NCBI RefSeq assembly: GCF_026153455.1
Contig: NZ_CP110629.1
Location: forward strand, 4,042,217-4,066,216
Direction of reading: 5' to 3'
DNA from: Marinimicrobium sp. C6131
GTDB taxonomy: Bacteria; Pseudomonadota; Gammaproteobacteria; Pseudomonadales; Cellvibrionaceae
Length of the DNA: 24,000 bases
This document shows positions 3,153-17,012 of this stretch, in pieces (position 1 is the first letter of the stretch; the number at the start of each line of letters is the position of its first letter). The notes under the pieces are model-generated. The model made no database searches, was not told where the DNA came from, and worked only from the letters and a program-made list of their open reading frames with translations. Both the position numbers and the translations under genes were made by a program.

Positions 3153-4577
3153 ATGAAAGACCTGATCCGCCAATTCGGTCGCCTGCGTCTGTTGGCGCTG
3201 GTGCTGACCTATCTGCCGCTGACCGCGGTTCCGGTGGCCGGCGTGGTCTGGCTCTGGCAAACGGGGTACCTGGCCTATTGGTTGTTGCTGTTGGCCATTT
3301 GCGGCGGCTGTGCGCTGATGCTCCAGCTGTGGCTGGCGCGCACCGACAAGCGCCGGATTCCGGACGCGCGCACCGGTCCCAGCGGCCACTGGTCCACGAC
3401 GGCCGAAGGCGCCTGGACCCAGGTGGAGGCTCTGGCGCAGAGCGCGGACCCCGCGGAATACGCCCTCAGCGACGGTTCCGCACTCTGGCTGCTTGGACAG
3501 CATGCGCTGGAGCGGGTGGCCGGGCACTTTTTCCCGGATAAGGAGCGGCCGCTGCTTGAGCTGACGGTACCCCACGCACTATTGATCATCGAGCGCGCCA
3601 GTCGTGAGTTGCGTCAGGAAATTGTGCATACGGTACCCTTCAGCCATCGCCTCAGCCTGGGCAACCTGGTGCGGGCCCGGCGCCTGCAACAGACCGCCAC
3701 GCGCTACCACAATGCGTTCCGCATGGGGCGGGCGCTGATCAGCCCGACGAGTGCACTGTACCAGGAGTTCAGCCGCGCCGTGGGTGGCCATATTCTGGAT
3801 TACGGCAGCGAGCGCATGCAGCGCTGGTTGCTGCAGGAATATGTGCGCAAAGTGGGGTTCTACGCTATTGAGCTGTACAGCGGAAACCTGTTGCTCAGCG
3901 GCGAGCTGACCGCCGGCACGGGGCAGCCGCTGCAGGTCCTGGTGCTCGGCCCGGCCGGCAGTGGTAAAACCAGCCTGCTCGAGGCACTGGCCGGCGGCCA
4001 GTCCGACATCAACCCGAACACCAGTGATAAGTGGATCAACGCCCACCGAATCACGTCACCGGTCTGGGGCGAGCTCGAACTGTGGGATACCCCGGCGTGG
4101 CCAAAGTTGCCTCGGCGCCGAGCGCGTGCGGCGGTGGCAGCGGCCGATCTCATCATCTGGGTCAGCGATGCCAGCGCCGAGGGTATGAAAGACGATGCCG
4201 AGCAACTGGCGCGACTGCAACGCTGGCTGGGGCGTCGCGCCGGACAGCCGGAACCGCCATTACTGGTGGCCCTGACGCACCTGGAGCAACAGGGAGAAAC
4301 CTTTTCCTTGGCGGCAGTGGCGGAGCAACTGTCGATTCCGGTCGAGCAGATCATTCCTCTCTCGCTGGCGGACCCACACTCTGAACAGGCCCGAGAGCCA
4401 TTACAGGCCGCCTTCAATCAATACTATGTCAAGGCGGAGCGGTGCCACTACTGGCGATACCTGAATCAGCGCCGCCAGGCGGAGAATCGAGAACTGTCGG
4501 GCCGTCAGTTGCGTGGTGCCGCCGGCACGGCATGGCGCGCGGCGCGTGGGCTGTTTCGTCAGGGGCCCAAGGGGTAG
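3153..4577 (+). CDS. Membrane-anchored P-loop GTPase-like protein
   Basis: 474-aa ORF. It has two N-terminal hydrophobic helices (LLALVLTYLPLTAVPVAGVVWLW and YLAYWLLLLAICGGCALMLQLWL). Motifs: Walker A/G1 GPAGSGKTS (about 3948-3974), G3-like LWDTPA, G4-like ALTHLE. This is a family-level call only. Confidence 0.7.
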   Translation: MKDLIRQFGRLRLLALVLTYLPLTAVPVAGVVWLWQTGYLAYWLLLLAICGGCALMLQLWLARTDKRRIPDARTGPSGHWSTTAEGAWTQVEALAQSADPAEYALSDGSALWLLGQHALERVAGHFFPDKERPLLELTVPHALLIIERASRELRQEIVHTVPFSHRLSLGNLVRARRLQQTATRYHNAFRMGRALISPTSALYQEFSRAVGGHILDYGSERMQRWLLQEYVRKVGFYAIELYSGNLLLSGELTAGTGQPLQVLVLGPAGSGKTSLLEALAGGQSDINPNTSDKWINAHRITSPVWGELELWDTPAWPKLPRRRARAAVAAADLIIWVSDASAEGMKDDAEQLARLQRWLGRRAGQPEPPLLVALTHLEQQGETFSLAAVAEQLSIPVEQIIPLSLADPHSEQAREPLQAAFNQYYVKAERCHYWRYLNQRRQAENRELSGRQLRGAAGTAWRAARGLFRQGPKG

Positions 4578-4580
4578 AGG

Positions 4581-4850
4581 TTATTCGTAATGGAAACGGC
4601 ACTGAATGATAAGCAAAGTGGCGTCGGGGCCTTCGCCTTTGAGCTTGTAAACCAGTCGGTGCTCCCGGTCGATACGTCGGGACCAGTAACCTTTCAGTCC
4701 GTGTTTTAGGGGCTCAGGTTTACCGCTGCCGTCAAAAGGGGTGCGCATCGTCTCCTGGATTAGCTTATTGATACGTTTTACCGTTTTCTTATCCGTTCCC
4801 TGCCAGTATTCGTACTCACTCCAGGCAGTCGATGTCCATGCCAAAATCAT
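4581..4850 (-). CDS. yoeB: YoeB/Txe-family type II toxin (ribosome-dependent mRNA interferase)
   Basis: 89 aa, co-linear by eye with E. coli YoeB (WSEYEYWQGTDKKTVKRINKLIQETMRTPFDGSGKPEPLKHGLKGYWSRRIDREHRLVY...CRFHY). Its ATG overlaps the upstream antitoxin stop (ATGA at 4847-4850). Confidence 0.95.
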   Translation of the reverse strand: MILAWTSTAWSEYEYWQGTDKKTVKRINKLIQETMRTPFDGSGKPEPLKHGLKGYWSRRIDREHRLVYKLKGEGPDATLLIIQCRFHYE

Positions 4851-5098
4851 TCAACCAGATTCCTCTGCACGATGTCGCCGCGCTCGGCCTCTTCCAAAGA
4901 GGTTTGAAGCGCCCGGGCATTGGCTGGCGTAGACAGGAGGTAGCTGGTTTCCTCATAGGACTGGAAGTCTTCCAGGCTCATCAGTACTGCTGACCGGTTC
5001 TTTGAGCGGCGAATGATTACGGGTGCGTGATCGTCATTGACCCGATCCATAAAGCTCGCCAATTTTTCCCGGAAGGCAGAGAAATTGATAATGTCCAT
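4847..5098 (-). CDS. yefM: YefM/Phd-family antitoxin
   Basis: MDIINFSAFREKLASFMDRVNDDHAPVIIRRSKNRSAVLMSLEDFQSYEETSYLLSTPANARAL matches the YefM pattern. I use the ATG at 5098 (AAGG about 9 nt upstream) rather than the track's TTG at 5119. That gives 83 aa, as in E. coli YefM. Confidence 0.93.
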   Translation of the reverse strand: MDIINFSAFREKLASFMDRVNDDHAPVIIRRSKNRSAVLMSLEDFQSYEETSYLLSTPANARALQTSLEEAERGDIVQRNLVE

Positions 5099-5125
5099 GG
5101 GCGGTACCTTAGTCAGCAATCAATT

Positions 5126-5147
5126 GATGTACGAAAAATTGTACACC
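5126..5147. promoter_or_regulatory. Putative yefM-yoeB operator (two GTAC-core motifs 12 bp centre to centre)
   Basis: TGTAC at 5128-5132 and TGTACA at 5140-5145, just upstream of the yefM start. The E. coli yefM-yoeB operator is described as two palindromes with TGTACA cores spaced 12 bp centre to centre. Confidence 0.55.
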
Positions 5148-5297
5148 TTTTGGCGGTGATAGGGCAATGGGTGCGTAGGGGCTGCTGGTGTCGACATTTA
5201 TTGCACTGAAAATTGCTCCTGCATTTTCAGCATTTCCGCCATCCATGGCGGGCAACCCCGACTGAGGGACTCCAGCGCTCTGAACCGAACCACCCAT

Positions 5298-5327
5298 AAA
5301 AAACCCCCAGATCTTGCGATCTGAGGG
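5298..5327 (-). terminator. Rho-independent terminator (minus strand), orphan
   Basis: The minus-strand RNA reads CCCUCAGAUC-GCAA-GAUCUGGGGG followed by UUUUUU. The stem is 5304-5313 / 5318-5327 with one G-U pair and a GNRA-type loop; the A run is 5298-5303 on the plus strand. No intact minus-strand gene lies immediately upstream of it. Confidence 0.65.
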
Positions 5328-5410
5328 TTGTTTATTGGTGGGCCTGGGGAAGCTGAAAAGAATCGATAACGTATTGTATTTTAAAGTGAAAATATTGGTT
5401 CAACTAATCT

Positions 5411-5432
5411 TTGGAATACCGCTTGGAATACC
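5411..5432. repeat. 10-bp perfect direct repeat, 2-bp spacer
   Basis: ttggaatacc at 5411-5420 and 5423-5432, in the AT-rich scar between the terminator and the integrase relic. Confidence 0.8.
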
Positions 5433-5441
5433 TGTCACTCC

Positions 5442-5799
5442 CGTGAACCGGCGGTTCAAGGTAACAATACTTTAAGCGGGGTGGGGGTGGCGCTAATGCC
5501 GTTTTTTAAGCTGGGATAGGGTTTCGAGTATGGCTTTGATGGTATCACGAGCTGAATTGCCGTCAAAATGGGATATGACAGCAATACGCCAGGCAAGAGC
5601 AAGGGAGTTGTTGACACCCCATCATTCCTGAATGAGGAGGGCTTCAACCGTGACGCTATTGGGCGCCGGCTTTCCCGTCAGGAGCGTAAGGGCGTCCGTG
5701 CGGCTTATTACTCATCAGACCGAGTACTTAACTGAGCGGGCCCGAATGATGCCTTGGTGGGCAGACTTTATTAATCAGGCCAAGAGCGAGCAGGCATGA
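5442..5799 (+). pseudogene. Tyrosine integrase relic (P4/CP4-57 type), C-terminal ~120 codons only, decayed
   Basis: The translation reads LSGVGVALMPFFKLG*GFEYGFDGITS*IAVKMGYDSNTPGKSKGVVDTPSFLNEEGFNRDAIGRRLSRQERKGVRAAYYSSD, then a frameshift near 5720, then EYLTERARMMPWWADFINQAKSEQA*. This follows the C-terminal layout of P4-like integrases (..EYVFPG.., ..MGYD.., ..LNE.GF..D.IE.QL.H.., ..RAAY.., ..ERR.MMQWWADYL). In-frame stops lie at 5517-5519 and 5553-5555. The HxxR region is unrecognisable and the whole N-terminal two thirds is missing. Confidence 0.65.
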
Positions 5800-5836
5800 G
5801 CTCCCCGGTCAGTTGCGGGTGCAGGTTTGGCGACAT

Positions 5837-6691
5837 TCATGCGTGAGAGGCTGCATTGTTGGAGGTACGATCAAATTCCTCTCTGATTAGCTCATCAAGT
5901 AGCTGATTTACCGATTTGCCACGTAAGGTAGCTAAATTGTTTAGCTTATCTTTTGTGGCAATTGGCAGGCGAAAGTTGCATTGCTTGGTATTTGTATTTT
6001 TGTCCCGAAACTTTTTTTGGCTCCAAGACTTCCTCATGTTGCTGACTAGCAGTTTCCTGCTGTCTGAATGGCATCGCCAGGTATCGAACCTGGTTAGAAC
6101 TTGAGCGTAAAGATCTTTCCTTGGGTCACGCTTCAATCCAAACCACCCTATCCTCTTTTCAGCAAGGTAATCCCAGGCCCATTGGCATTGTGTTTGGTTG
6201 GTTTTGCTTAACCATTTTAACTGGTGATCATAGGCTTTTATGTTTTGCCACGTTTCGGACAACCCTTTGATGGTTTGCTTCTTCACGGATAAATCTTCAT
6301 CCATCAAGTCAATTTTGCAAACAAAAGCAGCATTTGGACTTAAGGCTTCTGGAATTAGAGGGTTGTATAAATCATCCACGTTACTGCTGAACATTGAAAT
6401 CGATAGCCAATCAATAAGCCGCTGGTCTGCTTTTTCAATCCACCGAATGTCCGTTTCGGGTAGCAACATCTCAGCGTGACAGCGTCGCGCGATCTGGGAA
6501 GTTAGTAAGGGGTTGTCAGCCCTATTTAGGGCACCGTGAATCTCTTCGCGCTTCCCTTGGGTGCTCCCGAACTTGCTTGGATCAAGGCCTCCAATATTGT
6601 GTTGGAGCCAACCCCATAACCAATTAATGTCCCGCAGGCTTTTGATGTGCCGAATCTCTTCAGGGAGATTTAAATTAATGTTAACCGACAT
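5837..6691 (-). CDS. Hypothetical protein, AT-rich orphan with C-terminal ribbon-helix-helix-like segment
   Basis: 284-aa ORF in a visibly AT-rich tract. The C-terminus CNFRLPIATKDKLNNLATLRGKSVNQLLDELIREEF has the strand-helix-helix pattern of CopG/Arc/MetJ-type RHH domains. The Trp-rich N-terminal ~230 aa matches no family I know. It occupies the position and orientation of yfjH in E. coli CP4-57 (from memory). Confidence 0.7.
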   Translation of the reverse strand: MSVNINLNLPEEIRHIKSLRDINWLWGWLQHNIGGLDPSKFGSTQGKREEIHGALNRADNPLLTSQIARRCHAEMLLPETDIRWIEKADQRLIDWLSISMFSSNVDDLYNPLIPEALSPNAAFVCKIDLMDEDLSVKKQTIKGLSETWQNIKAYDHQLKWLSKTNQTQCQWAWDYLAEKRIGWFGLKRDPRKDLYAQVLTRFDTWRCHSDSRKLLVSNMRKSWSQKKFRDKNTNTKQCNFRLPIATKDKLNNLATLRGKSVNQLLDELIREEFDRTSNNAASHA

Positions 6692-6965
6692 AAGTGAATT
6701 AAAACCATAATTTATATTCTAAAAATGAATATATTACTAGTAGTGTATTAAGTGGTAATTTAAGCAGTATTAAAGAAGGTTATCAAGTAGTTTTAAAGCA
6801 CAATTTGAAGTTAATAAATTTATCTGAGAGGCCTATTAATACTGGCCTATAGAGAAAAGGTTCTTAGTGCTCAAGGAGTTTATAAATTTTTCCGCCGAAG
6901 AATATGCTTGTTGTTATTCCTTACTCACTCGGCACATCTCATGAACGGATCTATAGGAGTCCACC

Positions 6966-7181
6966 ATGAGATTTTTACGCCTCAAAGAAGTCATAGAGCT
7001 GACCGGCCTGAGCCGGTCCACCATCTACAAATACATCGAAGACGGGCTATTTCCCCGCTCCGTCTCCCTCGGCGGGCGGGCTGTTGCCTGGGTTGAGCAA
7101 GAAGTTCACGATTGGATACTGGCTCGGATTGAGGAGCGGGACCAAGAGAAGCCGGCGTTCTCCGACCGCGCCGTCGCCTGA
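6966..7181 (+). CDS. alpA: AlpA-family transcriptional regulator / excisionase-like HTH protein
   Basis: MRFLRLKEVIELTGLSRSTIYKYIEDGLFPRSVSLGGRAVAWVEQEVHDWI is the canonical AlpA/phage regulatory protein motif (R.kEV....G.SrsTiYr....G.FP.pv.lG.r.v.W...EV..W). Confidence 0.93.
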   Translation: MRFLRLKEVIELTGLSRSTIYKYIEDGLFPRSVSLGGRAVAWVEQEVHDWILARIEERDQEKPAFSDRAVA

Positions 7182-7400
7182 TAAGGCGTGGTTTTCCTTC
7201 CGTATGCGAAACGGTAAGCGAGCGTCTGGCCAGGCGTCAGGGGGTGGGGCGCAGCCTCACCCTCTGGCACGGGCTGTGTTGCTCAAAAGCGCAGTGTGAC
7301 GGCAGTCACATTCCTGGATTTAGCGGATTATGGCCCGTTGCGTCTATGGCACGGTTCCGACACACTTCGGATCTCTGGAGATCACAAAAGGGACCTGCGT

Positions 7401-7979
7401 ATGTCATTACCTCACGAGCATGTCGTCAATCACGCCATCAGCCAGTTTGCCCGTCTGGAGCAGCCCAGCCTGCTGGACTGGAACCACCTGAAAACCCTTT
7501 CCCAGATACAGCGAGGATTGGCGGAATATGAGGCCAAGGGCCGGGGTATGACCTTCGAGCAGCTCATGAATGAGAGTCACGACTGTAAGCGCCTGGCTCG
7601 CCATATGACGGCGAGTGGGGACCCGAGGCCCAGCCAGAAGTGTGACTGCCATGCCATTATCGCTGGTAAGGACCCCAGATCGGTGCCTTTACGGGCGGTT
7701 ATGGCTTGGGTGAAGATGAGGATTGATTTCCCGTTGAACGGGGCTTGGCTTCCTCACAACACCGCTGCAAAGCCCCATATGCCCAAACACTTGAGTCAGG
7801 CGGTCCCCCATAGCAGAATTCACCGGAATGGCTATTACCGCTGGTTGGGCACCCTCATTGATCACGTCCGTATCAAGGACGACCGTTCATTGGCGGACGC
7901 GCTCCGAATGGTTCGCTTTAAGCTCCAGACCTCCAGCTTCCCGCCATACGTCATGCTGCCAGCGAGCCGGCTCAAATGA
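7401..7979 (+). CDS. AHH-clade HNH/EndoVII-like nuclease toxin domain protein (divergent, no delivery domain)
   Basis: In order: DCHAIIAG (CHAII at 7647-7661), NGAWLP (7737-7754) and PHSRIHRNGYYRW (7806-7844). This is the order and spacing of the AHH toxin family (aHHi.., NG..LP, H.g.H..Y). The start is ambiguous: ATG 7401 (AAAGGGA upstream) or the track's GTG 7296. The stop overlaps the next gene. Confidence 0.55.
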   Translation: MSLPHEHVVNHAISQFARLEQPSLLDWNHLKTLSQIQRGLAEYEAKGRGMTFEQLMNESHDCKRLARHMTASGDPRPSQKCDCHAIIAGKDPRSVPLRAVMAWVKMRIDFPLNGAWLPHNTAAKPHMPKHLSQAVPHSRIHRNGYYRWLGTLIDHVRIKDDRSLADALRMVRFKLQTSSFPPYVMLPASRLK

Positions 7980-8557
7980 TCTATCGAATTCTGCACGATG
8001 AGTCGTACCTAATGCATGTCATTCCGCCGGTGGAGTCTATGACCAAGCTGGGGGAGGAACACGGAACCTTTGCCTTTAACGCTGAACCCAAGGCGTATCA
8101 AGGCGTCTGGAAGCCGCTAGAGATTGAGTTCCGCCCCTGCGAGGGTTCGAGAGCGACCGAAGTGCCGGACGTATCGGAAAACTTCGGGCGGCTATTCCTG
8201 TCCGAGAGAGCATTCTTGGTCCTGGGCGATCTGTTGGAGCAGAGCGGGGAGTGCCTGCCAGTGACCTTCGGCGGGCGCAAAGGATATATTTTCAACCCCA
8301 CCTCCACGGCAGAGCAGTATGATGCGATTATTCAATCTGCGACTGCTTACGACGAGCACGGAAACTTGGTGCACTTTGGGTTTGTTGAGGCAAGGCTTGC
8401 CGGCGTCCCAATGTTTAAAACTGAGCTGGATCTCTACAAGGGGGTTTTTTGCGGTGAGCCGGTAAGGGATCTCTGCGTCAGCGAGGGGCTGACGGGAATA
8501 ACTTTCAGCCCGGACGCCTCTAATCCCCTGGGCAGGTCTTACGGCCAAATTCAGTAG
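7976..8557 (+). CDS. Imm11 (DUF1629)-like immunity protein
   Basis: ATGA start/stop overlap with the nuclease gene at 7976-7979. It is 193 aa, which is the typical family size. MIYRILHDE.. at the N-terminus, then PDVSENFGRLFLSERAFLVLGDLLEQSGECLPV, YIFNP, VPMFK and GLTGITFSP resemble the DUF1629/Imm11 pattern as I remember it. Confidence 0.5.
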   Translation: MIYRILHDESYLMHVIPPVESMTKLGEEHGTFAFNAEPKAYQGVWKPLEIEFRPCEGSRATEVPDVSENFGRLFLSERAFLVLGDLLEQSGECLPVTFGGRKGYIFNPTSTAEQYDAIIQSATAYDEHGNLVHFGFVEARLAGVPMFKTELDLYKGVFCGEPVRDLCVSEGLTGITFSPDASNPLGRSYGQIQ

Positions 8558-8901
8558 GGCGGTCCCGTCCAAGAGGAGGCCGGGTTTGATAGGCTTCTTC
8601 AAAACTCTTCGAAATAATCGACAGCGTAAAAACGCCGTGACTTGCCGAGCGCCCGTTCCTTAGGCTCTGTCTACGTCGGGACTTCATGGGTTCAATCATG
8701 TAGGGAATAGTAATATATACCCACGCCAGTGTGGATGAACCCATGCACGATAGTAAGCATGGGAAGCGGTAGCAGCGGAGTAATGGGCTGCCTCAAAGCA
8801 GCCCCCATATAACGTCGATAGCGAGCGAGAGCCTGACGTGGTGTAAAAGTTGATAGAGCCTCCTGACGGTATGTACATGAACCATACCTATTGGAGTAAC
8901 C
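8558..8901 (+). other. Hairpin-dense non-coding spacer (candidate cis-regulatory RNA / replication origin) upstream of the Gp2-family gene
   Basis: There is no credible ORF here. Inverted repeats:
- 8685-8694 catgggttca / 8736-8745 tgaacccatg (10 bp), enclosing ccac-gccagt-gtgg (8721-8734)
- 8785-8791 gggctgc / 8798-8804 gcagccc
- 8868-8873 ggtatg / 8883-8888 catacc, flanked by ctcc (8860-8863) that can pair with the GGAG Shine-Dalgarno (8893-8896). Confidence 0.45.
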
Positions 8902-9600
8902 ATGAAACCAACTACATTTGAACACCACGACCAACCTAAAGCCAAGCTGGGCCACTTAACGCTCCACGAAGATCATCACTACCGAAACCTCCCGGTTCAA
9001 GTAACCAGAGGACCGCTTATTGAGGAGTATCTGGAGCGACTGTACGAGGTGGTGCAGGAATCCCTGATGGACAACAGCCGTGTATTTGCAGTCCGGGTAG
9101 ATCTTAGGTTCCCGGTGAGCTACTGGCCTCTCGAAGGAGAAGCGCTTGGCAATGAATACATCAGGCGGTTTTGGGAGGTGTTGAAGTACAGGCTGTCTCG
9201 GTATCAACTCAGAGAGGGCCGTATTCACCCAGCGAAGCTCCACTATGCTTGGGCACGTGAATACAAGGCAGGTGAGACGAAACCACATTTCCATCTGCTG
9301 ATTCTGTTGAACGGCCATGCCTTCAACACGCTGGGTAATTTCAATTACTCTGGAGAGAATCTGCACAACGTGATAGCTGAGTCCTGGGCGAATGTGTTGA
9401 TGTTGCCGGAATTCGAGGGGAAGGGGCTGGCGAACTTTCCCGTAGATGGGCAGTACCTTGTTCGGCGGGGCGTTGAGTGGGAGCTTCAGAAGCTCTTCTT
9501 GCGGGGCAGCTATCTCACGAAAGCCGCCACCAAGTCCTTTGACGATGGCTGCCACTCATTTCGGACAAGTCAGACTTCAGTCGGCGGATGGATGTGGTGA
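8902..9600 (+). CDS. Inovirus Gp2 / YagK-YfjJ family protein (putative HUH-type replication initiator)
   Basis: ATG at 8902 with GGAG upstream. VFAVRVDLRFPVSY and KPHFHLLILLNGHAF are the family signatures I recall for YfjJ/YagK. HFH (9286-9294) is an HUH-like motif. Confidence 0.8.
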   Translation: MKPTTFEHHDQPKAKLGHLTLHEDHHYRNLPVQVTRGPLIEEYLERLYEVVQESLMDNSRVFAVRVDLRFPVSYWPLEGEALGNEYIRRFWEVLKYRLSRYQLREGRIHPAKLHYAWAREYKAGETKPHFHLLILLNGHAFNTLGNFNYSGENLHNVIAESWANVLMLPEFEGKGLANFPVDGQYLVRRGVEWELQKLFLRGSYLTKAATKSFDDGCHSFRTSQTSVGGWMW

Positions 9601-9606
9601 TTGAGT

Positions 9607-9631
9607 TATGGGCGCCGACAAGGCGCCCATA
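9607..9631 (+). other. Perfect 10-bp palindromic hairpin just after the Gp2-family stop
   Basis: tatgggcgcc (9607-9616), gacaa loop, ggcgcccata (9622-9631). No U tract follows, so it could be a terminator or a protein-binding/nick-site hairpin. Confidence 0.4.
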
Positions 9632-9701
9632 TGCCGGGATAGGTAGTAATTCTTGATGGGCTCGCCTGTTGATATGTAGCCATATTCACAGGAGCCCAAT
9701 C

Positions 9702-10223
9702 ATGAACACTGATTATCAACTGGTTGCCACCGGAACACTTACTCCACTTAGTCGCGATGTTCTGGATGGCGCGAGCCAAAGCGAACTGTCTTCCAGCCAG
9801 TCAAAGCGTGCGGACTGGGTCAAGAGGATTCAGTCATCAATGGTGGAGGTGGCGGTCACCACTGCGTTTCCAAGTTACCAAAGCCTGGGGGAAGGAGCCT
9901 GGCAACATCAAGTGGTCGAGCGCATCTATCAGGCCGCTATCGCACGAACCAATAGCCGGTTAAAGCACGTAGCCCCCAGGCAGTACCTGCACCCTGACAA
10001 ATCAGTGCGGGTCTGTCTTGTGTGGGATCGGCTACACGATAACGAGTATGGAAGGCCGGTTTATCGTCAACGTTGGTACATATCCAAGCGTGATGTTGCC
10101 CTGCTGGGTTATCCCGGCCGCCTGGGAGAGGAGTGCTTTTCGGATATCGTTCTGGCGACGTGGCACGCGGGAACGGATGATGCGGAAGCATGGCGCACCC
10201 ATGAAGTGGCGTGCGCCTGCTAG
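9702..10223 (+). CDS. Hypothetical island protein (173 aa) with two decayed paralogous copies downstream
   Basis: ATG at 9702 with AGGAG 8 nt upstream; the track's TTG at 9669 is less likely. I recognised no family. The C-terminal RWY..K.D.ALLGYPGRLGEECFSDIVLATWHAGT..AEAW block is repeated at 17300-17734 and partly at 17085-17171. Confidence 0.7.
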   Translation: MNTDYQLVATGTLTPLSRDVLDGASQSELSSSQSKRADWVKRIQSSMVEVAVTTAFPSYQSLGEGAWQHQVVERIYQAAIARTNSRLKHVAPRQYLHPDKSVRVCLVWDRLHDNEYGRPVYRQRWYISKRDVALLGYPGRLGEECFSDIVLATWHAGTDDAEAWRTHEVACAC

Positions 10224-10332
10224 ATACAGTTCTGTTCCCGGTCAAAAGGGGGGCGTAGCACGGACGCATTGGTCAGCATTTAGTAGCCGTGCGACATACC
10301 GAAATCCTCAAACAATCTTGGTACTAGACGTC

Positions 10333-11172
10333 TCAGCGAACTAGCGCAATACCGACTCTTACTACAAAGTCCGTCTTTTGGCTGTAGTCGACCAGGGTGT
10401 TACCGTAACCGTGAAAAGCTTGCACGTAAAAAAAGCCGCCCGCCCGATTGAAAATCCTGGCACTCATGGGGAAAGAAACCCCAAGCTCAACGCTACCATA
10501 ACCCTCTGTGCCCATTCTAAGCGTCGAGTCCACTAGCCAACTTTCCTCCCGGCCCAGACGGATGATGAGGTCACCGTAACCACGGTAGTCTCTTATATCC
10601 GGGTTTTCATCCTTGTCCAGGTAATAGCGGAGTCGCGGGATAATGGTGAGGTTGCGATCACCGATTGGTTTCTGCCAGATTGGCTGGATGAATAGCGTGT
10701 CGATACTGCGGGAGTCCAAGCCATCTTGCCCATTCGATTCGTGCTCATAGCCAATGCGCATGACATCGGGCGAAAAAAGCCCTCCTGGGCCGTCAACCTG
10801 CCAGAAAAAGCTTGGCCTGTAGCTCGTATCGTCAAAGGGGGCAGACTCCTCACTCAGGTTCCAAACCGAGGTTTGGGTGTAGGCAAAGTGCATGTTTCGA
10901 AGCACTGGCGCGGCCTCTACCAACGAACCCTCCGAATCAAAGATACGGTACATAAAGCTGAATTGAAAGCGCGCGGTATCCTGCTCGTCGTCGCTCCCCA
11001 CAACAAAGTACATCGGCTCGTTGGGCGCAAACACATCCTGAATTTCCATGGCCTCTTCTTCTGCTTCTTGGGGCGTATCTGCGCTAACCATTGGGGCGAA
11101 GCCTGCTGTCGCTAGGGCAGCGTACGACAGCCAACCGCGGATCTGCCGTGTAATGGCCTGATAGTCTGGCAT
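10333..11172 (-). CDS. pldA: Outer-membrane phospholipase A (OMPLA family)
   Basis: Signal peptide (..WLSYAALATAGFAPMVSA/DTP). It carries the catalytic-site signature GYEHESNGQDGLDSRS (compare E. coli YNHDSNGRSDPTSRS, with His/Ser and a later Asn). The F.FSFMYRI-type beta-barrel strands are present. Confidence 0.88.
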   Translation of the reverse strand: MPDYQAITRQIRGWLSYAALATAGFAPMVSADTPQEAEEEAMEIQDVFAPNEPMYFVVGSDDEQDTARFQFSFMYRIFDSEGSLVEAAPVLRNMHFAYTQTSVWNLSEESAPFDDTSYRPSFFWQVDGPGGLFSPDVMRIGYEHESNGQDGLDSRSIDTLFIQPIWQKPIGDRNLTIIPRLRYYLDKDENPDIRDYRGYGDLIIRLGREESWLVDSTLRMGTEGYGSVELGVSFPMSARIFNRAGGFFYVQAFHGYGNTLVDYSQKTDFVVRVGIALVR

Positions 11173-11326
11173 CTCAAATAACCTCTTTTTGCTTCGGTAA
11201 GTTCATTATCTTGAACGAAGTCGCGTCGCTTCGGTTTCAGCCTGTGCCCATTTACCCAACGCAGCTTCAATGGAGGAGAAAATGGTCGCTCTCTTAGTTT
11301 GAATATTTCAACAATACCAACCACCT

Positions 11327-14047
11327 CTATTCCTTTTTCGGTCCGCCATGGGGCATAGGAGCGGTACGGATGTGAATATCTCGCTGAGGAAAAGGGATTT
11401 CAACACCGGCTTCGCTGAGGGCGCGGGTGATGGCGGAGTGCAGCTCATGAGACAGAGGCATGAAGTCCAGAAGACTCCTCACGAATACCCGCACCTCGAA
11501 GTTGACGCCACTGTCTCCCAGACCCACGCAGAAGACCGCCGGGGCCGGGTTGCCCAACACCCGCTCGTTGTTTTCCGCCACTTTGTGCAGCAGGTCACGA
11601 ACCTTGTCCACATCGGAGCCGTAGGCGACATCCACCCGAATAATCACCCGGGTGATGGGGTCGGAAAGGGTCCAGTTGGTGAGATCCTGCGTCACAAAGG
11701 TCTTATTAGGAATAATCTGCTCTTTGCGGTCCCAGTCCACCAAGGTGGTCGCTCGGATGCGGATGCGAGACACGGTGCCCGTGGTCCCACCGATGGTCAC
11801 CGTATCGCCGACGCGGATCGGGCGTTCAAACAGCAGGATGAGACCGGAGACAAAGTTGGCGACGATTTCCTGCAACCCGAAACCCAGACCTACACTCAGG
11901 GCAGCTACCAACCACTGCAATTTGGACCATTGCACGCCGATTGCCACCAACGCCACTACCACGCCGATGAACACAATGATGTAGGTGGTCAGGGTGGTAA
12001 TGGCGTACCCGGCCCCGGGCTCCAAATTGATGCGGCTCAATACCATCACCTCCAGCGTCCCCGGCAGGTTGCGGGCGGCCAGGACGGTGCCGACCCCAGC
12101 CAGCAGCGCCAGCATCAGGTCACCCAGAGTAATGGGCACTAAGGCCTCAGCTTCAGCCCCCGTGCTGATAGTCCACAGGGTAATGTCATCAAAAATCTGC
12201 AGCGCGGGTATCACGTCGGCCCAGAAACCCCAGAGTACGTAAGCCGCGAGGGTAATGGCCAATATGCGCACCAGCGCCTTGCTTTGCTGGCTGATGTCTT
12301 CCAGATCCATTTCGGGCATGTCGAGGGCAACGGGTACGCCCTCTCCGGAATTTTCTGCAGCCTCGCGGGCTTCGGCCAGTTTACACTCGGCGACGCGCTG
12401 TTCCCGCAGCCGCTTGAGGGTCATGCGTCGCTCCCGTACCGACAGACCACGCAGAGCCAAGTAATACAGCAGCGTCGCGAAGGCCAGCCAGCAGATGCTG
12501 ATGAACATCAACCCTTCCAATTGAACCGCCGTATAGTGGTAGCCCCAGAGGGATGCGAGGGCGAGCAGCAGGGGCGTGGCGATCGCCAGCACCTGTTGGC
12601 CTTTCAGGAAGTTGCGCTCGGGCGCAACCTGCCGCGCGGCGGTCGTCACGCGCCAGCCAAACCAGGCCAGTGCCACTGAGGCTGCGGTAAACAGCAACCG
12701 ACCGAGGCTGTCACTGAAGGCGTCGCCCTCCGGCGTGTCCATGGTCGACAGGACAATCACGACCGGAATCATTACCACCAGCAGTACTGGGACCTGCCCT
12801 CGGATGGCCGACAGCGTTGGGCCATTCCAGTTGAAATGCCGCTCACCGAGCCCGCCTGGACGGGCCACCGAATGTAGGGCCCCCAGGAGCAGGGTAACGA
12901 AGGCGGCCGTGGTAAAGCCGGATGATAATGCGGAGAAGAAACTGTTGCCCTCCTTGAGCATCAGTGCACCGACGGAGAGTACCAGGACACCGGGCAATGC
13001 CAGCAGCAGACTCAGGGCCCCTGCGGTGAGGGTGACGGTGAAGCGATCACGGCCCACGTTGCCGACATCTTCTCCAGAATCCACCAGCACCTTTCGCAGA
13101 ATGCGACGCCGGCGTACCAAGAACGCCAGAGCAGCTAGTATTACCAGTACACGACCGCCCCTTTCGGCGAAAGAGCTGCGCAGGGCATCAGTGAGGTCGC
13201 TCAAATGAAAGCCCGACAGAAACCAACTGATCCCTTGGTACGAGTCTTTGACGGTGTTCAGGCTCACACGCTCGGTGCTGGGAAGCCAGAACAGCCGTTG
13301 CTGCAGTAGTTGCTGGTAGGCGTCAAGACGCTCCTGCAGCTCGGCCACAGTGTTGTAGTATTCATTGAGGACGTCGATATGTTTAGTTACGGCACCGTGG
13401 AGCTGGGTGATCAGCTCCTGGCGTACCTCTCGGGTGCGCTCGAGAGCAGGGACGTCGGGTTCGCTGATAGCTTCGTACTCTTCTAAGCGAAGCTGTTCTT
13501 CACGGGCGGTCGATAACTGGGCGCTGATACCATCGGTCAGCACACTGGCGATGGTATGGCTTTTGAGCCGGTCCAAGCGTTGGCGCAGCAGACGGGCATA
13601 GTCAACGGTGAGGTTCAGCCCGGCCGTCTCAAGTCGCAACTCAAAACTGCGGTACTCATTCTCCAGTCGTTCCAGCAGAGTCTGGGCCTGATCGAGCCGA
13701 CGATGGCTGCCTTCCAATGCAGACTGCCGGTTATCCAGCGAGTTGCGCAGAATCTGAATCTGCTGGTGGATATCTGCGGACTGTGGTGCCGACAGTTCGC
13801 TCTCCAACAGCTGCTCAGACTCATCCTCCAATATTGGCTGGAACGGATTGGCAGACGGCCCAGGCAACGGTTCCCCGGCTTCCTGTTGATCGCCGGACTC
13901 CTCGCCGGCATCTTCCTCCGCCTGTTCGTTGCTGGAGCCAGGCAACAGATCGGTCACCGTAGCCACGGCGGGCGCCACCAGCAGGCAGTACAGGATCAGC
14001 CCTGCGAAAAGTGACCAGTAAGTGGAGGGTGACGTTCGTGCAGTCAT
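11327..14047 (-). CDS. Large mechanosensitive channel of the MscS family (MscK/KefA/MscM-like)
   Basis: 906 aa. It has a signal/anchor segment, a long periplasmic coiled-coil-like region, then multiple TM helices. The C-terminal MscS core is GLGFGLQEIVANFVSGLILLFERPIRVGDTVTIGGTTGTVSRIRIRATTLVDWDRKEQIIPNKTF. Confidence 0.9.
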   Translation of the reverse strand: MTARTSPSTYWSLFAGLILYCLLVAPAVATVTDLLPGSSNEQAEEDAGEESGDQQEAGEPLPGPSANPFQPILEDESEQLLESELSAPQSADIHQQIQILRNSLDNRQSALEGSHRRLDQAQTLLERLENEYRSFELRLETAGLNLTVDYARLLRQRLDRLKSHTIASVLTDGISAQLSTAREEQLRLEEYEAISEPDVPALERTREVRQELITQLHGAVTKHIDVLNEYYNTVAELQERLDAYQQLLQQRLFWLPSTERVSLNTVKDSYQGISWFLSGFHLSDLTDALRSSFAERGGRVLVILAALAFLVRRRRILRKVLVDSGEDVGNVGRDRFTVTLTAGALSLLLALPGVLVLSVGALMLKEGNSFFSALSSGFTTAAFVTLLLGALHSVARPGGLGERHFNWNGPTLSAIRGQVPVLLVVMIPVVIVLSTMDTPEGDAFSDSLGRLLFTAASVALAWFGWRVTTAARQVAPERNFLKGQQVLAIATPLLLALASLWGYHYTAVQLEGLMFISICWLAFATLLYYLALRGLSVRERRMTLKRLREQRVAECKLAEAREAAENSGEGVPVALDMPEMDLEDISQQSKALVRILAITLAAYVLWGFWADVIPALQIFDDITLWTISTGAEAEALVPITLGDLMLALLAGVGTVLAARNLPGTLEVMVLSRINLEPGAGYAITTLTTYIIVFIGVVVALVAIGVQWSKLQWLVAALSVGLGFGLQEIVANFVSGLILLFERPIRVGDTVTIGGTTGTVSRIRIRATTLVDWDRKEQIIPNKTFVTQDLTNWTLSDPITRVIIRVDVAYGSDVDKVRDLLHKVAENNERVLGNPAPAVFCVGLGDSGVNFEVRVFVRSLLDFMPLSHELHSAITRALSEAGVEIPFPQRDIHIRTAPMPHGGPKKE

Positions 14048-14113
14048 AAATCGCGATACATGTTTAACCGCAAATTGCGGTAAGGTAGCGAAAAAGGGGC
14101 AGGCAAGGACGAC

Positions 14114-14767
14114 TTAAGAATCCTCAACGCCGCCCCAGGTTGAATTCGTCATGGCATCCTGCCAGTCGGTGCGGCAGAAGATGATCGCCCCTTGAGTAAT
14201 AAGCCCGTAGGCGAACAGTTCCAGGCCCTCCTGCAATCCCGACTTGAAGGCGTGGTTATAGCTGTCTCCCAGTGCACTTTTCCACAACAGGTTGCCACTT
14301 CCAAACAGGCGGCTGAAGATGAACAGGGTGACAAAGCCAATCAAGACAAAGACATAGGATCGGGTGCCGAGAAATCGAGCAGCTGGCCCGAATACCGAAT
14401 TCCGATTGAGCAATGCGAGCACGACGGAAATCAGTACCACGGCAGAGACAGGCCATACCCAGGTCCCATGCCCAAAAACTGCATCGAACAGAAAATCCAT
14501 TTCCCGCAATAACAGGCACAGGAAAAATCCGGTTATCAAAATCAGTGCCCCCCGTGCATATGGCACGCTCACAGCTCTATAGCCAAAGAGCAGTACACAG
14601 AGTAATAGCAAAGCTTCTTGCACTGTCTCGGTCAACGATGCTTCGCCCACGCCGTTGTCCAACACTACGAGATCGATAGAAACTACTACGGGAGCCAGAA
14701 TGGCGATTGCAACCAGCAGCATGATTTCTTTCCAGGTGTGACGTAATTGTCCGATAAATTCCTGCAT
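14114..14767 (-). CDS. Polytopic inner-membrane protein, function unknown
   Basis: 217-aa ORF with an ATG start and about six hydrophobic segments (MLLVAIAILAPVVVSI, LLLLCVLLFGY, ALILITGFFLCLLL, VWPVSAVVLISVVLALL, YVFVLIGFVTLFIF, LELFAYGLITQGAIIF). I recognised no family. Confidence 0.65.
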   Translation of the reverse strand: MQEFIGQLRHTWKEIMLLVAIAILAPVVVSIDLVVLDNGVGEASLTETVQEALLLLCVLLFGYRAVSVPYARGALILITGFFLCLLLREMDFLFDAVFGHGTWVWPVSAVVLISVVLALLNRNSVFGPAARFLGTRSYVFVLIGFVTLFIFSRLFGSGNLLWKSALGDSYNHAFKSGLQEGLELFAYGLITQGAIIFCRTDWQDAMTNSTWGGVEDS

Positions 14768-14962
14768 GACTACCTCTCCTAATTTACTGAAAATGTAACG
14801 TAATATCAGAATGGTAACGCATGCGGTGAATAATCTCGGTAAAGAAATGTAGTAAGTAATAGGGGGTGTTCTTCAAGTTATTTGGCTGGACCTGTATCGT
14901 TAGAGTGTCGGTGGTGTCGTTTCTTTAAAGTTGGCTAGGGTCGGGTAAGGTTGACTAATAAA

Positions 14963-15517
14963 TCAGCATCTTTTGTGCGTTACGTCGAGTAAAATTTCCC
15001 GGGTTTCACCTATATCAGGAGGGTTCACCCTGGATAGGGCAGATAGACAGAATTGCTCCGCAGCGAATCTTGCTACGGACAAATGATCATCCCCATCGGT
15101 ATGAAAGTGCTTTCGTAGAATGTTGTCAAACCAGTTTGCCCACATCGGTTGAAGCTCCGGATCGTTGAAGCAAAGAGCGACTAAAGCCGATCTCTTGTCG
15201 AGTTTTCCTCTCCATGCCGATTCTATTAGAAATTCGGTATAGGCGCGTGTAAATGATCCATATTCCTCTGGATCTTCGATCATGTATCTGTCAAGGTCGC
15301 GTTCGGCTGAGGAAATAAAATCATCAAAAATTGCCAGCGGGAGTGCTCGTTCATCGGAGAAATGGTGTAGAAATTCTCTCTCTGTGACTCCTGCTTCGAA
15401 GCACACATCCTGGACGGTTAACGATGCATTTGTAGGATTAGTCAATACTAAAGTTCCTGCGGTAATAATTTTCCTTCTGATAAGTTCTTTGTGGTCGTTT
15501 TGATGATATAGAATCAC
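14963..15517 (-). CDS. TetR-family-like transcriptional regulator (divergent), in an AT-rich patch
   Basis: GTG start at 15517 with GGAGGA 8 nt upstream. The N-terminal HTH-like segment ASLTVQDVCFEAGVTEREFLHHFSDERAL fits the TetR_N pattern. The C-terminal domain is unassigned. Confidence 0.6.
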   Translation of the reverse strand: MILYHQNDHKELIRRKIITAGTLVLTNPTNASLTVQDVCFEAGVTEREFLHHFSDERALPLAIFDDFISSAERDLDRYMIEDPEEYGSFTRAYTEFLIESAWRGKLDKRSALVALCFNDPELQPMWANWFDNILRKHFHTDGDDHLSVARFAAEQFCLSALSRVNPPDIGETREILLDVTHKRC

Positions 15518-15603
15518 CTATGTTTTCCTCCAATGCTCAATTGATCCGATATATTAATTTTCATGGATAATCTCCGGGCTTTCGTCATTGCTCTGGGGCT
15601 TAT

Positions 15604-16227
15604 CTATCTGTCTTGGGTGCCATCGCGAAAGGGTATTGAAGCAACTATCGGTACAGAATCGACTTTCTGTTGTATAGGCACCCAAATCTGTAGGTCGCCC
15701 CAGCCGGAATTAAGATCGAAAGACTCTTCGTAACGTTCTAGAAACTGCGGAACGTCTGGAACATGCCTCAACGGGAGTAGATTCAGTGACGGTAGGCTAT
15801 TGGAGAAAATCGCATGGGTTGTGGTCCTCAGAGCGGACAAATGTTTCTCGTGTGCGAACACGGCATAGTGTTGCGCGGGAATTGTCAACTGTTGCCAGTC
15901 CGAGTTGAGATGTTCAAAGCTCTCGACTTCCACGGCGGTTAGGTAATCGAAACCATCGGCTCCGTTCTTCGAATGCAGCAAGGCGCCATACAGGCGGCGA
16001 TCCACTTGCTCGGGCAGCCACCCCTGATAGGGCAAGAAGGTTTTCCGCAATGCCATAAGGTTGCTAAAGGGCAGCCCCTTCACCGGAGAGCGCAGCCCTG
16101 CCAGCTTAATCTCGGGCTGGTTGCGAATTTCTATCAGCCGGGGCGCCTCCGAGAGCGGGTCGCTCGGAAAGCGGTGGTGCGGAGATCGTTTAGTGTGCCT
16201 TCTGTGAGGGGTGGTGACGGGCATCAT
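15604..16227 (-). CDS. GyrI-like / AraC-effector-binding-domain small-molecule binding protein
   Basis: ATGATG at 16227 with GGAGA upstream. IEIRNQPEIKLAGL..., ..LTIPAQHYAVFAHEKHLSALRTTTHAIFSNSLP.. and ..LERYEESFD follow the two-repeat GyrI-like layout. It has a basic His/Arg-rich N-terminal extension. Confidence 0.6.
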   Translation of the reverse strand: MMPVTTPHRRHTKRSPHHRFPSDPLSEAPRLIEIRNQPEIKLAGLRSPVKGLPFSNLMALRKTFLPYQGWLPEQVDRRLYGALLHSKNGADGFDYLTAVEVESFEHLNSDWQQLTIPAQHYAVFAHEKHLSALRTTTHAIFSNSLPSLNLLPLRHVPDVPQFLERYEESFDLNSGWGDLQIWVPIQQKVDSVPIVASIPFRDGTQDR

Positions 16228-16260
16228 TGTCGTCTCCGTGCATCAAAGCGCTGTAGAGGC

Positions 16261-16311
16261 TGTTAACGGCGTTAACATATTAGTTCCAGTTTATTGGTAA
16301 CGGTGTTAACA
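16261..16311. promoter_or_regulatory. Twin 17-bp operator-like sites in the divergent TetR / GyrI-like intergenic region
   Basis: tgttaacggcgttaaca (16261-16277) and tggtaacggtgttaaca (16295-16311) differ at 2 of 17 positions. Each is an imperfect inverted repeat, TGTTAAC-N3-GTTAACA. The second abuts or overlaps the first possible start of the TetR gene. Confidence 0.6.
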
Positions 16312-17012
16312 TGTCAACTCTTTCAATGAAGAGTTGTGCCATGACCGAAGCGCTAGAGCTGTCTCCCGGGAGGCGGGAACGAAAAGAGAAACTGACGCCA
16401 ACTCAGATCGCGGAGGTGGCTCTGACGATTGTCGATCAGAAAGGCCTGGATGGCTTGACCATGCGAGCTCTGGCAGACGCCATGGGGGTGCAGTGCCCAG
16501 TGCTGTACCGCCTGATATCAGACAAGCAGCAATTACTGAGCGAAATGGCCGAGGTGATGGTGGGTCGGGTGTCACTTGATGACCTCGGTCACGGCGAGCC
16601 CTACCAGGACCTTGCAGAGAGCGTTCGTCGGATAAGGCTTGTGCTGCTGGAGCAGCGTGACGGGGCCCGAATTATCGGTGGCAGCTTCTGTGCCAAGCAC
16701 AACACCCTGCGCGCGGCGGAGGCCATGTTGGGATTGATGGCCCGAGTGGGCCTAACCGGCAGCCGCGCAATGCAGACAATGAAAACCATATTTAGCTTCG
16801 TACTGGGTGAAACACTTGAGCAGCAGGGCTTGCCACATGATGCCAAAAAAGCTGAGCGAGAGCTGTTAAATTCCGCGCGAGAAGCACTGGATGATCCCTA
16901 TTTCACTTTCTTAACCTTCGAGCTACTTGAAGATCACTTGTTTCAATTTGAGCAGTGTTTCGAGTCCGGGCTGGCGCTATTGCTCGCATGGATTCGTGAA
17001 GAGACGACTTAG
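16311..17012 (+). CDS. TetR/AcrR-family transcriptional repressor (TetR(class)-like C-terminal domain)
   Basis: LTPTQIAEVALTIVDQKGLDGLTMRALADAMGVQCPVLYRLISDKQQLL is a clear TetR_N HTH. The true start may be an in-frame ATG at 16326 or 16341, because the 16311 ATG sits inside the operator. Confidence 0.85.
   Translation: MSTLSMKSCAMTEALELSPGRRERKEKLTPTQIAEVALTIVDQKGLDGLTMRALADAMGVQCPVLYRLISDKQQLLSEMAEVMVGRVSLDDLGHGEPYQDLAESVRRIRLVLLEQRDGARIIGGSFCAKHNTLRAAEAMLGLMARVGLTGSRAMQTMKTIFSFVLGETLEQQGLPHDAKKAERELLNSAREALDDPYFTFLTFELLEDHLFQFEQCFESGLALLLAWIREETT

Follow-up and report, generated by a model that had tools for sequence, protein, structure and literature searches.

What is the role of a two-gene locus in which a nuclease-like toxin gene and its immunity gene lie on an island rather than beside a secretion system? 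We addressed this question for a pair of overlapping genes in Marinimicrobium sp. C6131. The window, that is, the whole stretch of DNA analysed, comprises 24,000 nucleotides (nt) (NZ_CP110629.1, 4,042,217-4,066,216), and all positions given below follow the numbering of the window. The first gene (7401-7979, + strand) encodes a stand-alone AHH-family, putative His-Me finger protein of 192 amino acids (aa), with a molecular mass of 22 kDa and an isoelectric point (pI) of 10.1, and is referred to here as the toxin gene. The second gene (7976-8557, + strand) encodes a 193-aa protein of the Imm11/DUF1629 family with a pI of 4.8, and is referred to as the immunity gene. The original prediction, which was made from the DNA alone, regarded the pair as an intracellular toxin-antitoxin (TA), addiction or abortive-infection module. 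As judged from comparisons of sequences and genomic loci, the pair is an autonomous mobile two-gene toxin-immunity cassette. The evidence for the identity, pairing and mobility of the two genes is described first, and the possible roles of the pair are weighed thereafter.

Identification of the toxin as a stand-alone AHH-family protein

The assignment of the upstream protein to the AHH family was checked by a hidden Markov model (HMM) search. The toxin matched Pfam AHH (PF14412) with E = 7.2e-9 and 36.1 bits, over the gathering score of 22.3, and the match covered residues 67-157; the proposed assignment was thus confirmed. Databases already label these toxin proteins as 'AHH domain-containing'.

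Two lengths had been considered for the open reading frame (ORF), the longer of which, 227 aa, starts from GTG 7296. However, the close toxin homologues (n = 32) are nearly all exactly 192 aa (range 192-200 aa), and an AAGGA-type Shine-Dalgarno sequence is found 7-8 nt before the ATG and is kept even at loci with otherwise unrelated upstream DNA. Because of these homologue lengths and the conserved Shine-Dalgarno sequence, we placed the start of the toxin at ATG 7401. The 227-aa form was accordingly ruled out as an ORF-calling artefact.

A search of 1.84 billion cluster representatives with a profile of the toxin family yielded 1115 of them at E <= 0.001, of which 244 reached E <= 1e-10. The best approximately 125 matches listed were all short proteins (<=293 aa); the full-length ones among them were 190-260 aa and aligned from the N-terminal region through to the C-terminus. 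The profile also retrieved canonical AAHH toxins. Long proteins (540, 677, 808 and 3681 aa) entered the list only from E ~ 1e-13, and aligned only with profile positions ~68-188, at their own C-termini. Because the long toxins are only distant, core-only matches of the profile, the toxin is not what is left of a disrupted polymorphic toxin. The stand-alone nature claimed for the nuclease therefore held, and the concern expressed with that claim, that the ORF might be the 3' fragment of a longer toxin, proved unfounded. The toxin is also not the C-terminal warhead of a multi-domain secreted polymorphic toxin, as it is only 192 aa in length and no trafficking domain was found in it with Pfam. 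Taken together, these comparisons place the toxin in a distinct large clade of autonomous AHH proteins of ~190-250 aa, which have their own N-terminal extension of ~66 residues. In the window this helical extension corresponds to residues 1-66 (7401-7598, + strand). It is specific to the stand-alone clade, and it holds E58 (7572-7574) and H60 (7578-7580).

The AlphaFold2 (AF2) model of the toxin had a predicted local distance difference test (pLDDT) score of 91 and a predicted template modelling (pTM) score of 0.84. In the model, strands 81-85 and 114-118 and helix 142-152 appeared in the expected order, and the N-terminal helices (residues 4-17, 24-47 and 52-59) were packed with the nuclease core into a single compact domain. 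When the toxin model was compared with PDB using Foldseek, only noise was obtained, and only weak matches were found in BFVD. A profile search of PDB sequences with the toxin family gave no match, and NCBIfam gave no matches. To see whether other toxins share the N-terminal extension as a modular delivery domain, a profile of the N-terminus only was used; it was underpowered against 5.8 billion sequences and found two matches, one of which was AHH-annotated.

Active site of the toxin

The three ordered motifs that had been pointed out in the toxin were found at the predicted positions when the protein was numbered from ATG 7401. The first is strand beta-1, C81-D82-C83-H84-A85 (7641-7655, + strand), in which H84 occupies 7650-7652 and A85 occupies 7653-7655; D82-C83-H84-A85-I86-I87 corresponds to 7644-7661. 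The second, N113-G-A-W-L-P118 (7737-7754, + strand), forms strand beta-2, and the Asn conserved in the HNH/AHH motif is N113. The third, P136-H137-S-R-I-H141-R-N-G-Y145-Y-R-W148 (7806-7844, + strand), contains the two metal-binding His residues, borne on a helix, and the Tyr that is conserved in Tox-AHH.

Tox-AHH was defined by [AG]HH, followed by N, H, H and Y (Zhang et al. 2012, PMC3482391). The latter four residues are present in the toxin as N113, H137, H141 and Y145, which are invariant. At the position of [AG]HH, the toxin has C83-H84-A85 and departs from the definition. In V2a and V2c, the second His (H386 and H384, respectively) acts as general base and has been called 'the only invariant residue' among His-Me nucleases, and the first His is a metal ligand (PMC10902643). 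In the profile alignment, the canonical toxins showed A-A-H-H-I, versus D-C-H-A-I in the toxin. According to this alignment, H84 corresponds to the metal-ligand His and A85 stands where the general-base His would be, in agreement with the earlier C-H-A reading of this strand.

In the 27-sequence family alignment, A85 was invariant, as were G114, W116, L117 and P118 beside N113. H84, N113, H137, H141, Y145 and H60 were invariant in sequences down to ~40% identity. Because the active-site residues and the Ala are invariant over this range, the active site appears to be under purifying selection. We also counted the residues at the general-base position in the 121 representatives that were alignable at these positions, from the 150 best listed. 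The residue was Ala in 51, Phe in one and His in 69. The proteins of the His-His (HH) type were intermixed with close relatives of the toxin; P0080, for example, matched at E = 2.5e-65. The family thus offers a natural experiment in enzyme evolution, in which the 'only invariant' His-Me residue is gone in ~40% of the alignable representatives (51/121) with the metal site and the N-terminal His strictly conserved.

The E58-x-H60 motif is near-invariant and sits just ahead of the helix leading into strand 1. H60 was present in all 52 proteins without the catalytic His versus 38 of the 69 that retain one (Fisher 1e-9, with kinship ignored). This pattern fits a pre-existing active-site residue that permitted the loss of H85. 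Catalysis probably still occurs despite the loss of the general-base His, and H60 of the N-terminal extension is most likely the substitute base, as suggested by its conservation. His-Me nucleases with a substitute base are known, for example PacI with a Tyr (PMC5714182).

The immunity protein belongs to the Imm11 family

Searched alone, the immunity protein of the window matched Imm11/DUF1629 (PF07791) with E = 0.083 and 12.6 bits, below the cutoff of 22.1. However, Imm11 was matched by 26 of the 33 aligned homologues at E <= 0.01, the best at 4.3e-8. Forty-three immunity homologues were collected; the top one, from Marinimicrobium koreense, showed 96% identity, and one plasmid-borne homologue was annotated as DUF1629. 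The AF2 model of the immunity protein (pLDDT 92) showed an alpha+beta domain with a disordered tail of just 6 residues. Comparison of this model with PDB gave a single significant match, 6A4C (MXAN_0049), with E = 8.5e-7, a probability of 1.00 and template modelling (TM) scores of 0.59/0.54 over 203 columns. The Imm11 family has MXAN_0049 (6A4C, a solution structure) as its prototype, and this protein is the antidote to the AHH nuclease MXAN_0050 of Myxococcus (PMC12077181, PMC12077131). We identified the protein as Imm11 because 26 of 33 family members match the Imm11 model and its structural model matches MXAN_0049. The resemblance to Imm11 noted in the original prediction was therefore borne out at the level of the family and of the structure, with the protein's own Pfam score remaining sub-threshold.

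The immunity ORF starts inside the stop codon of the toxin gene, with a 4-nt ATGA overlap (CTC AAA TGA / ATG A); both this overlap and the 193-aa downstream ORF had been recognised correctly. The arrangement indicates that the immunity gene is translationally coupled to the toxin gene via the ATGA overlap. The two proteins carry opposite charges (the toxin has a pI of 10.1, the immunity protein one of 4.8), and the Myxococcus pairs likewise consist of a basic toxin and an acidic immunity protein (PMC12077131).

The two genes are paired and co-inherited across genomes

The pairing of the two genes was examined in 104 loci containing 110 toxin genes. An immunity homologue was located directly downstream on the same strand in ~108 of the 110, usually with the same 4-nt overlap. 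The pairwise identities of the toxins correlated with those of the immunity proteins (r = 0.86), and none of 500 Mantel permutations reached this r. Between the two, the immunity protein diverges faster, with ~65% identity where the toxins show 78%. These comparisons show that the toxin and the immunity protein form a co-inherited cognate pair, and we infer that the immunity protein binds the toxin directly.

When 185,579 species genomes were scanned, 96 relatives were found, mostly in marine Gammaproteobacteria. Their taxa included Cellvibrionaceae, Microbulbifer, Hahella, Endozoicomonas and Kangiellaceae, often with several copies per genome; the genomes of Microbulbifer, Endozoicomonas, Sessilibacter and Marinibactrum contained 2-3 loci each.

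Mobile-element and defence contexts of the pair

In Marinimicrobium relatives, the block 6931-9864, which consists of alpA, the toxin gene, the immunity gene and yagK, was 98% identical at loci L001 and L003, and the flanks differed. Because this 98%-identical block carries different flanks in the relatives, the pair was considered to lie in a variable region.

Plasmids also carry the pair. In Agarilytica rhodophyticola, the 31.5-kb plasmid pSU3 has the toxin gene and two immunity paralogues, with a resolvase, a PIN-domain protein adjoining an excisionase-family gene, and a DUF1778-domain protein as neighbours. In pSU2 of the same organism (71.7 kb), a serine recombinase adjoins the pair. As a separate observation on pSU2 (L021), a DprA and phosphoribosyltransferase gene pair lies at 9047-10293 of that locus, 3 kb downstream of the AHH/DUF1629 pair. 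A DprA and phosphoribosyltransferase combination has been reported as an anti-phage system of P2 hotspots (PMC9122126).

Phages are a further carrier. The Vibrio phage ValB1MD-2 (Peduoviridae) encodes an HH-type AHH protein of 243 aa, gp31, followed by gp30, whose match to the immunity profile reached 5e-34. On one side of this pair is a gpA-like Rep and on the other the portal gene, and the gpA-portal interval is the P2 defence hotspot (PMC9122126, PMC13586616). Furthermore, the toxin was matched by two PHROG families without an assigned function.

The pair was also found in RPA/ParA integrative elements, once beside an MvaI/BcnI restriction enzyme. Regarding these elements, we observed at L105 and L106 (~6580-7161) that two distinct metagenomic lineages have an RPA/ParA element inserted immediately downstream of uvrC-pgsA, its cargo being MvaI/BcnI and the pair in one lineage, and an integrase and an immunity-only remnant in the other. 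The uvrC-pgsA boundary looks like a recurrent integration hotspot in these assemblies. In L105, a 257-aa immunity call (10001-10774) comes after short ORFs only, beside an integrase and RPA/ParA.

With respect to defence systems, the pair lies directly beside a BREX system on the L013 contig. Two more divergent AHH-type pairs (250 aa and ~195-201 aa; 140 aa and 196 aa) were observed back to back on the same contig at 16560-18505, near a Zn-ribbon/Toprim primase, and are possibly on a satellite or prophage-like element. At another locus the pair is directly beside a set of SNF2, DEAD/MZB helicase and Eco57I-type methylase genes, which may be regarded as DISARM-like from its composition, and once it is near an SMC/AAA_23 ATPase and a methylase.

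To look for a conserved third gene, 1047 neighbours from 96 non-redundant loci were clustered. None was found by this clustering; the top family, which had no Pfam match, occurred in just 8 of the 96 loci, and the other recurrent neighbour families were generic (sigma-54 activators, SDR, LysR and AcrB). A Pfam scan of the 300 nearest neighbours detected ResIII (5), type I HsdR (2), SIR2_2 (2), SWI2_SNF2 (2), NACHT NNH3 (2), resolvase (2), YagK (2), ParA (2) and ParE (2), in addition to Cas1, DndB, Tn3 transposase and Phage_GPA. Accordingly, at several of the loci examined, the pair co-localises with defence systems or prophage hotspots.

No known delivery feature was found in the toxin, and no recurrent one in its neighbours

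The original prediction stated that the toxin has no signal peptide, PAAR, Rhs or LXG domain, and this was verified by hydropathy and Pfam scans. No hydrophobic N-terminus was found in the first ~40 residues of the toxin, where the maximum Kyte-Doolittle value in a 15-residue window was 0.06, and neither a signal peptide nor a lipobox was present. Pfam detected no PAAR, MIX, FIX, RIX, Rhs, LXG or other delivery-marker domain. Among the 300 nearest neighbours, no family belonging to a type VI secretion system (T6SS) matched two or more (singletons would be seen only within the 25 families listed). PAAR, VgrG, Hcp and adaptor families were not found in the ~10 Pfam-annotated flanks. In the Myxococcus T6SS AHH/Imm11 loci, an adjacent PAAR gene is present in all studied but one (PMC12077131). 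In the window, the pair is flanked by AlpA and YagK/YfjJ genes, in keeping with its predicted placement on an island and not beside a secretion system.

Comparison with known systems

MXAN_0050/MXAN_0049 of Myxococcus xanthus shares with the window pair the same two families, the order of toxin then immunity gene, and the combination of a basic toxin with an acidic immunity protein. In both, imm11 paralogues are sometimes extra, and the immunity model of the window matches MXAN_0049. In contrast, the Myxococcus toxins are T6SS substrates, mostly PAAR-adjacent, and have been reported as active AHH-family deoxyribonucleases (PMC12077181, PMC12077131), whereas the window pair has no PAAR/T6SS neighbour, possesses the E-x-H N-terminal extension and an Ala for the catalytic His, and rides plasmids, phages and islands. 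The Tox-AHH warheads, such as Agrobacterium V2a, have the His-Me finger core with N, H, H and Y that is predicted for the toxin, and Imm11 is a listed cognate family of them (PMC3482391). These warheads are, however, C-terminal domains with [AG]HH on long PAAR, Rhs, CdiA and LXG proteins, unlike the 192-aa toxin with C-H-A.

In terms of genomic setting, the window pair resembles the toxin-first phage-defensive TA systems rnlA-rnlB of CP4-57 and gop-beta of P4, which are two-gene operons on alpA-type islands, satellites and prophage hotspots. However, the folds are unrelated, and the window family has no PADLOC match. In rnlAB, the toxin is freed when antidote synthesis stops, as is proposed for the window pair. 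The same logic has been described for gop-beta-cII of P4 (PMC9122126). The orphan T6SS pairs of 'multi-conflict' islands, such as Serratia VgrG2b-CT and those of the Vibrio GMT islands, are also similar to the window pair in that a stand-alone toxin domain and its immunity gene lie beside anti-phage systems (10.1101/2024.01.28.577318). These pairs are still read as secreted effectors, whereas no link to a secretion system was found for the window family.

AHH/Imm11 pairs and stand-alone toxin cassettes are thus already known (PMC3482391). In the literature searched and in PADLOC, we found no description of a large autonomous AHH clade with an E-x-H N-terminal extension, of systematic loss of the catalytic His in the clade of the window toxin, or of a consistent siting, away from secretion genes, in plasmids, phage hotspots and defence islands.

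Possible roles of the gene pair

What the two proteins are, that they are obligately paired, and that the cassette is autonomous and mobile follow directly from the comparisons above; the remainder of the mechanism is what we infer. By analogy with MXAN_0050/MXAN_0049, the Imm11 protein would bind and neutralise the toxin 1:1 in the cytoplasm of the producer, and the toxin would stay there without export. The pair would then behave like a type II TA cargo of plasmids, temperate phages and integrative islands. If immunity protein were no longer replenished, either because the element is lost or because an infecting phage shuts off host expression, free toxin would attack DNA, and growth would stop or the cell would die. 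As the outcome, the carrier element would be stabilised and/or phage infection would be aborted. The compact bicistronic operon and a toxin without a signal peptide, transmembrane segment, export domain or recurrent secretion neighbour are consistent with this scheme, although they do not prove the absence of export. The plasmid, P2-hotspot and BREX/DISARM-like contexts fit it as well, so that this part of the original prediction gained in plausibility, but the contexts do not prove the role. On balance, we consider the chances about even that the pair is an intracellular TA-like addiction or abortive-infection module. If so, the locus would clearly exemplify how an AHH/Imm11 interbacterial pair was repurposed as cargo that protects or stabilises plasmids, prophages and islands, and would add to the anti-phage and addiction repertoire a compact two-gene candidate unflagged by PADLOC.

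Several observations weigh against an intracellular role. The functional evidence for it is guilt by association throughout. The immunity protein is well folded, Pfam detected no helix-turn-helix, ribbon-helix-helix or AbrB domain in it, and it has no obvious degron; it thus does not resemble the labile and/or DNA-binding, autoregulating antitoxin of a type II TA system. Neither the toxin nor the immunity protein had a match in PADLOC-DB v2 at E <= 1. A toxin without the general-base His might be weak or inactive, and the association of H60 with the loss of that His includes no correction for phylogeny. The distribution of the genes also speaks against it. One Hahella metagenome-assembled genome (MAG) contains at least six loci (L031, L048, L056, L058, L059 and L069). 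Tandem toxin-immunity-toxin-immunity arrays occur at L058, in this MAG, and at L064 and L065, and extra immunity paralogues at L009, L019 and L083. Furthermore, at L017 (10001-10585) an immunity homologue without an intact toxin lies among Imm49, another Imm11 and RES-domain genes; together with the immunity-only remnant at L105, this suggests that the toxin has decayed and the immunity gene has been retained. Interbacterial polymorphic toxin systems classically show extra and orphan immunity genes, tandem arrays and multiple copies per genome. The characterised AHH/Imm11 pairs are all delivered toxins, by the T6SS and outer-membrane exchange in Myxococcus and as V2a in Agrobacterium (PMC12077181, PMC12077131, PMC10902643). 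Finally, defence islands also gather orphan secreted effector-immunity pairs, one of which was tested and gave no phage protection (bioRxiv 10.1101/2024.01.28.577318).

Hence, the pair could instead be an orphan cargo effector-immunity pair. According to this explanation, the toxin would be loaded non-covalently on a T6SS (Hcp, or VgrG/PAAR encoded elsewhere) or on another contact-dependent export system, the DNA of rivals would be degraded, kin would be protected by Imm11, and mobile elements would spread the weapon. The delivery of all characterised relatives and the distribution just described are what such a pair would show, and the faster divergence of the immunity protein (65% versus 78% identity) is as expected of specificity arms races. 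At 22 kDa, the toxin is also small enough for loading into Hcp. Orphan pairs of this kind are documented in defence or 'multi-conflict' islands (10.1101/2024.01.28.577318). However, neither the neighbours nor the flanks show recurrence of PAAR, VgrG, Hcp or an adaptor, whereas nearly all of the Myxococcus loci have PAAR, and the toxin has no signal peptide, lipobox or known N-terminal delivery marker. In addition, its N-terminal extension was modelled within one compact domain (pTM 0.84) and not as a separable loading domain, and a P2-phage hotspot is among the sites of the pair, as are small non-mobilizable plasmids, where it lies near a resolvase and PIN-domain and DUF1778-domain proteins. 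We therefore regard delivery to rivals as possible but somewhat unlikely. If it were true, weapons would hitch-hike freely in defence hotspots, which would call for caution against assigning functions by guilt by association.

A further possibility is that the toxin is a degenerate, inactive His-Me finger protein, and that the pair is kept as a DNA-binding or regulatory protein with its partner or is a decaying relic. The supposedly invariant second His is Ala in the toxin and in 51 of the 121 alignable representatives, and single His-to-Ala changes abolish the toxicity of V2a and V2c (PMC10902643). On the other hand, the Ala is itself invariant and not drifting, and H84, N113, H137, H141, Y145 and H60 are invariant too. 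The coupled immunity gene is kept in ~108 of 110 cases, which would be unnecessary for a harmless protein, and the Tyr of PacI (PMC5714182) exemplifies how a substitute base can serve in His-Me nucleases. Purifying selection is thus evident for both the active-site set and the coupled immunity gene, and inactivity was judged very unlikely.

The idea that the locus is a silent 3' module, an orphan C-terminal warhead cassette kept with its immunity gene for recombination into Rhs, CdiA or another toxin gene, is hardly credible and was largely refuted by the 192-aa homologues, the short-protein profile matches and the unrelated upstream DNA at different loci, even though polymorphic toxin loci do hold stand-alone toxin cassettes (PMC3482391) and the Aliikangiella pair (L004) follows a small-gene array including a Barstar homologue, because the family has its own ATG, Shine-Dalgarno sequence and 66-residue N-terminal extension, hundreds of representatives share the same ~190-250-aa architecture, and no full-length toxin gene was found in the Pfam-annotated flanks, nor any recurrent one among the nearest neighbours.

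Returning to the intracellular module, a more specific proposal can be made by combining it with the active-site findings. Namely, this clade would have moved the general base off beta-1, with an invariant Ala and takeover by His60, and together with Imm11 it would make up a two-gene system for abortive infection or addiction that has gone unrecognised, was recruited from the polymorphic toxins used between bacteria, and populates the phage, plasmid and island defence hotspots of marine Gammaproteobacteria. In this complete form we consider the proposal unlikely, albeit worth stating.

Leader and surrounding region

The toxin gene is preceded by an intergenic leader of 219 nt (7182-7400, + strand), in which lie a long hairpin with G.U pairs (7236-7268), the palindrome GTGAC-GGCA-GTCAC (7295-7308) and the Shine-Dalgarno sequence AAGGGA (7388-7393). 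The hairpins of the leader had been noted earlier and are present in the sequence, but they do not appear to be a functional feature. L022, the closest relative, which has a 98% identical toxin, lacks the long hairpin through a deletion, and the palindrome is imperfect in L023. Similarity to distant loci begins only at 7410, and the DNA upstream is unrelated. The fold of the leader had a z-score of -2.7 versus shuffles, no family reached its gathering score when the leader region was searched with Rfam, and a consensus scan of the leader found no consensus sigma-70 site. The idea of a leader RNA or operator found no support, on these grounds: no Rfam family, no promoter, a z-score of only -2.7, and a hairpin and palindrome that are not conserved. 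Conservation thus indicates that only the Shine-Dalgarno sequence of the leader belongs to the system. In the same Rfam search, the Burkholderia small RNA anti-hemB gave a sub-threshold match at 7052-7199, over the 3' end of alpA (20.2 bits versus 49.5, E = 0.27), which is most likely due to chance.

A terminator-like hairpin with a T-rich tail (7175-7188, + strand) overlaps the alpA stop; the consensus scan found two such sites in the region versus 1.9 expected by chance. Its position at the alpA stop suggests separate transcription of alpA and the toxin operon. The alpA gene itself (6966-7181, + strand) encodes an AlpA-family excisionase/regulator (Pfam Phage_AlpA, E = 3e-25). On the other side of the pair, a YagK/YfjJ-family gene (8902-9600, + strand) matched Pfam YagK_YfjJ_C (E = 2.2e-30) and phrog_25019 (E = 1.6e-30). 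Its product also gave a sub-threshold match to REP_ORF2-G2P (rolling-circle Rep; E = 5.3e-5, 23.9 bits versus 27.8), a family also matched by the gpA-like protein that is encoded upstream of the AHH pair in the phage. Those ORFs of the window that were scanned against Pfam showed no integrase domain, and no tRNA gene was found in the window.

Further differences from the relatives were seen on both sides of the block. Downstream, 9865-17535 (~7.7 kb) is missing from L001 and L003, which are 96-98% identical elsewhere and have the cusS region joined directly to the yagK side. This segment contains genes for a phospholipase A1 (10333-11172, - strand), an MscK-like channel (11327-14047, - strand), a 217-aa protein, TetR-family regulators and a GyrI-like/Cass2 protein. 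Upstream, 4577-6930 is unlike L002 and L003, in which genes of 198/247 aa and 391 aa, none with a Pfam match, take its place; the sole piece of this segment shared with L002/L003 is 5287-5462 (176 bp, 92.6% identity). The GC content falls to 0.41 at 6001-7000. Divergent to alpA, a gene at 5837-6691 (- strand) encodes a 284-aa protein with a C-terminal Arc-like ribbon-helix-helix, which matched Pfam Arc (E = 0.036) and the Arc-like repressor phrog_582 (E = 3.9e-4) and, weakly, DUF1281.

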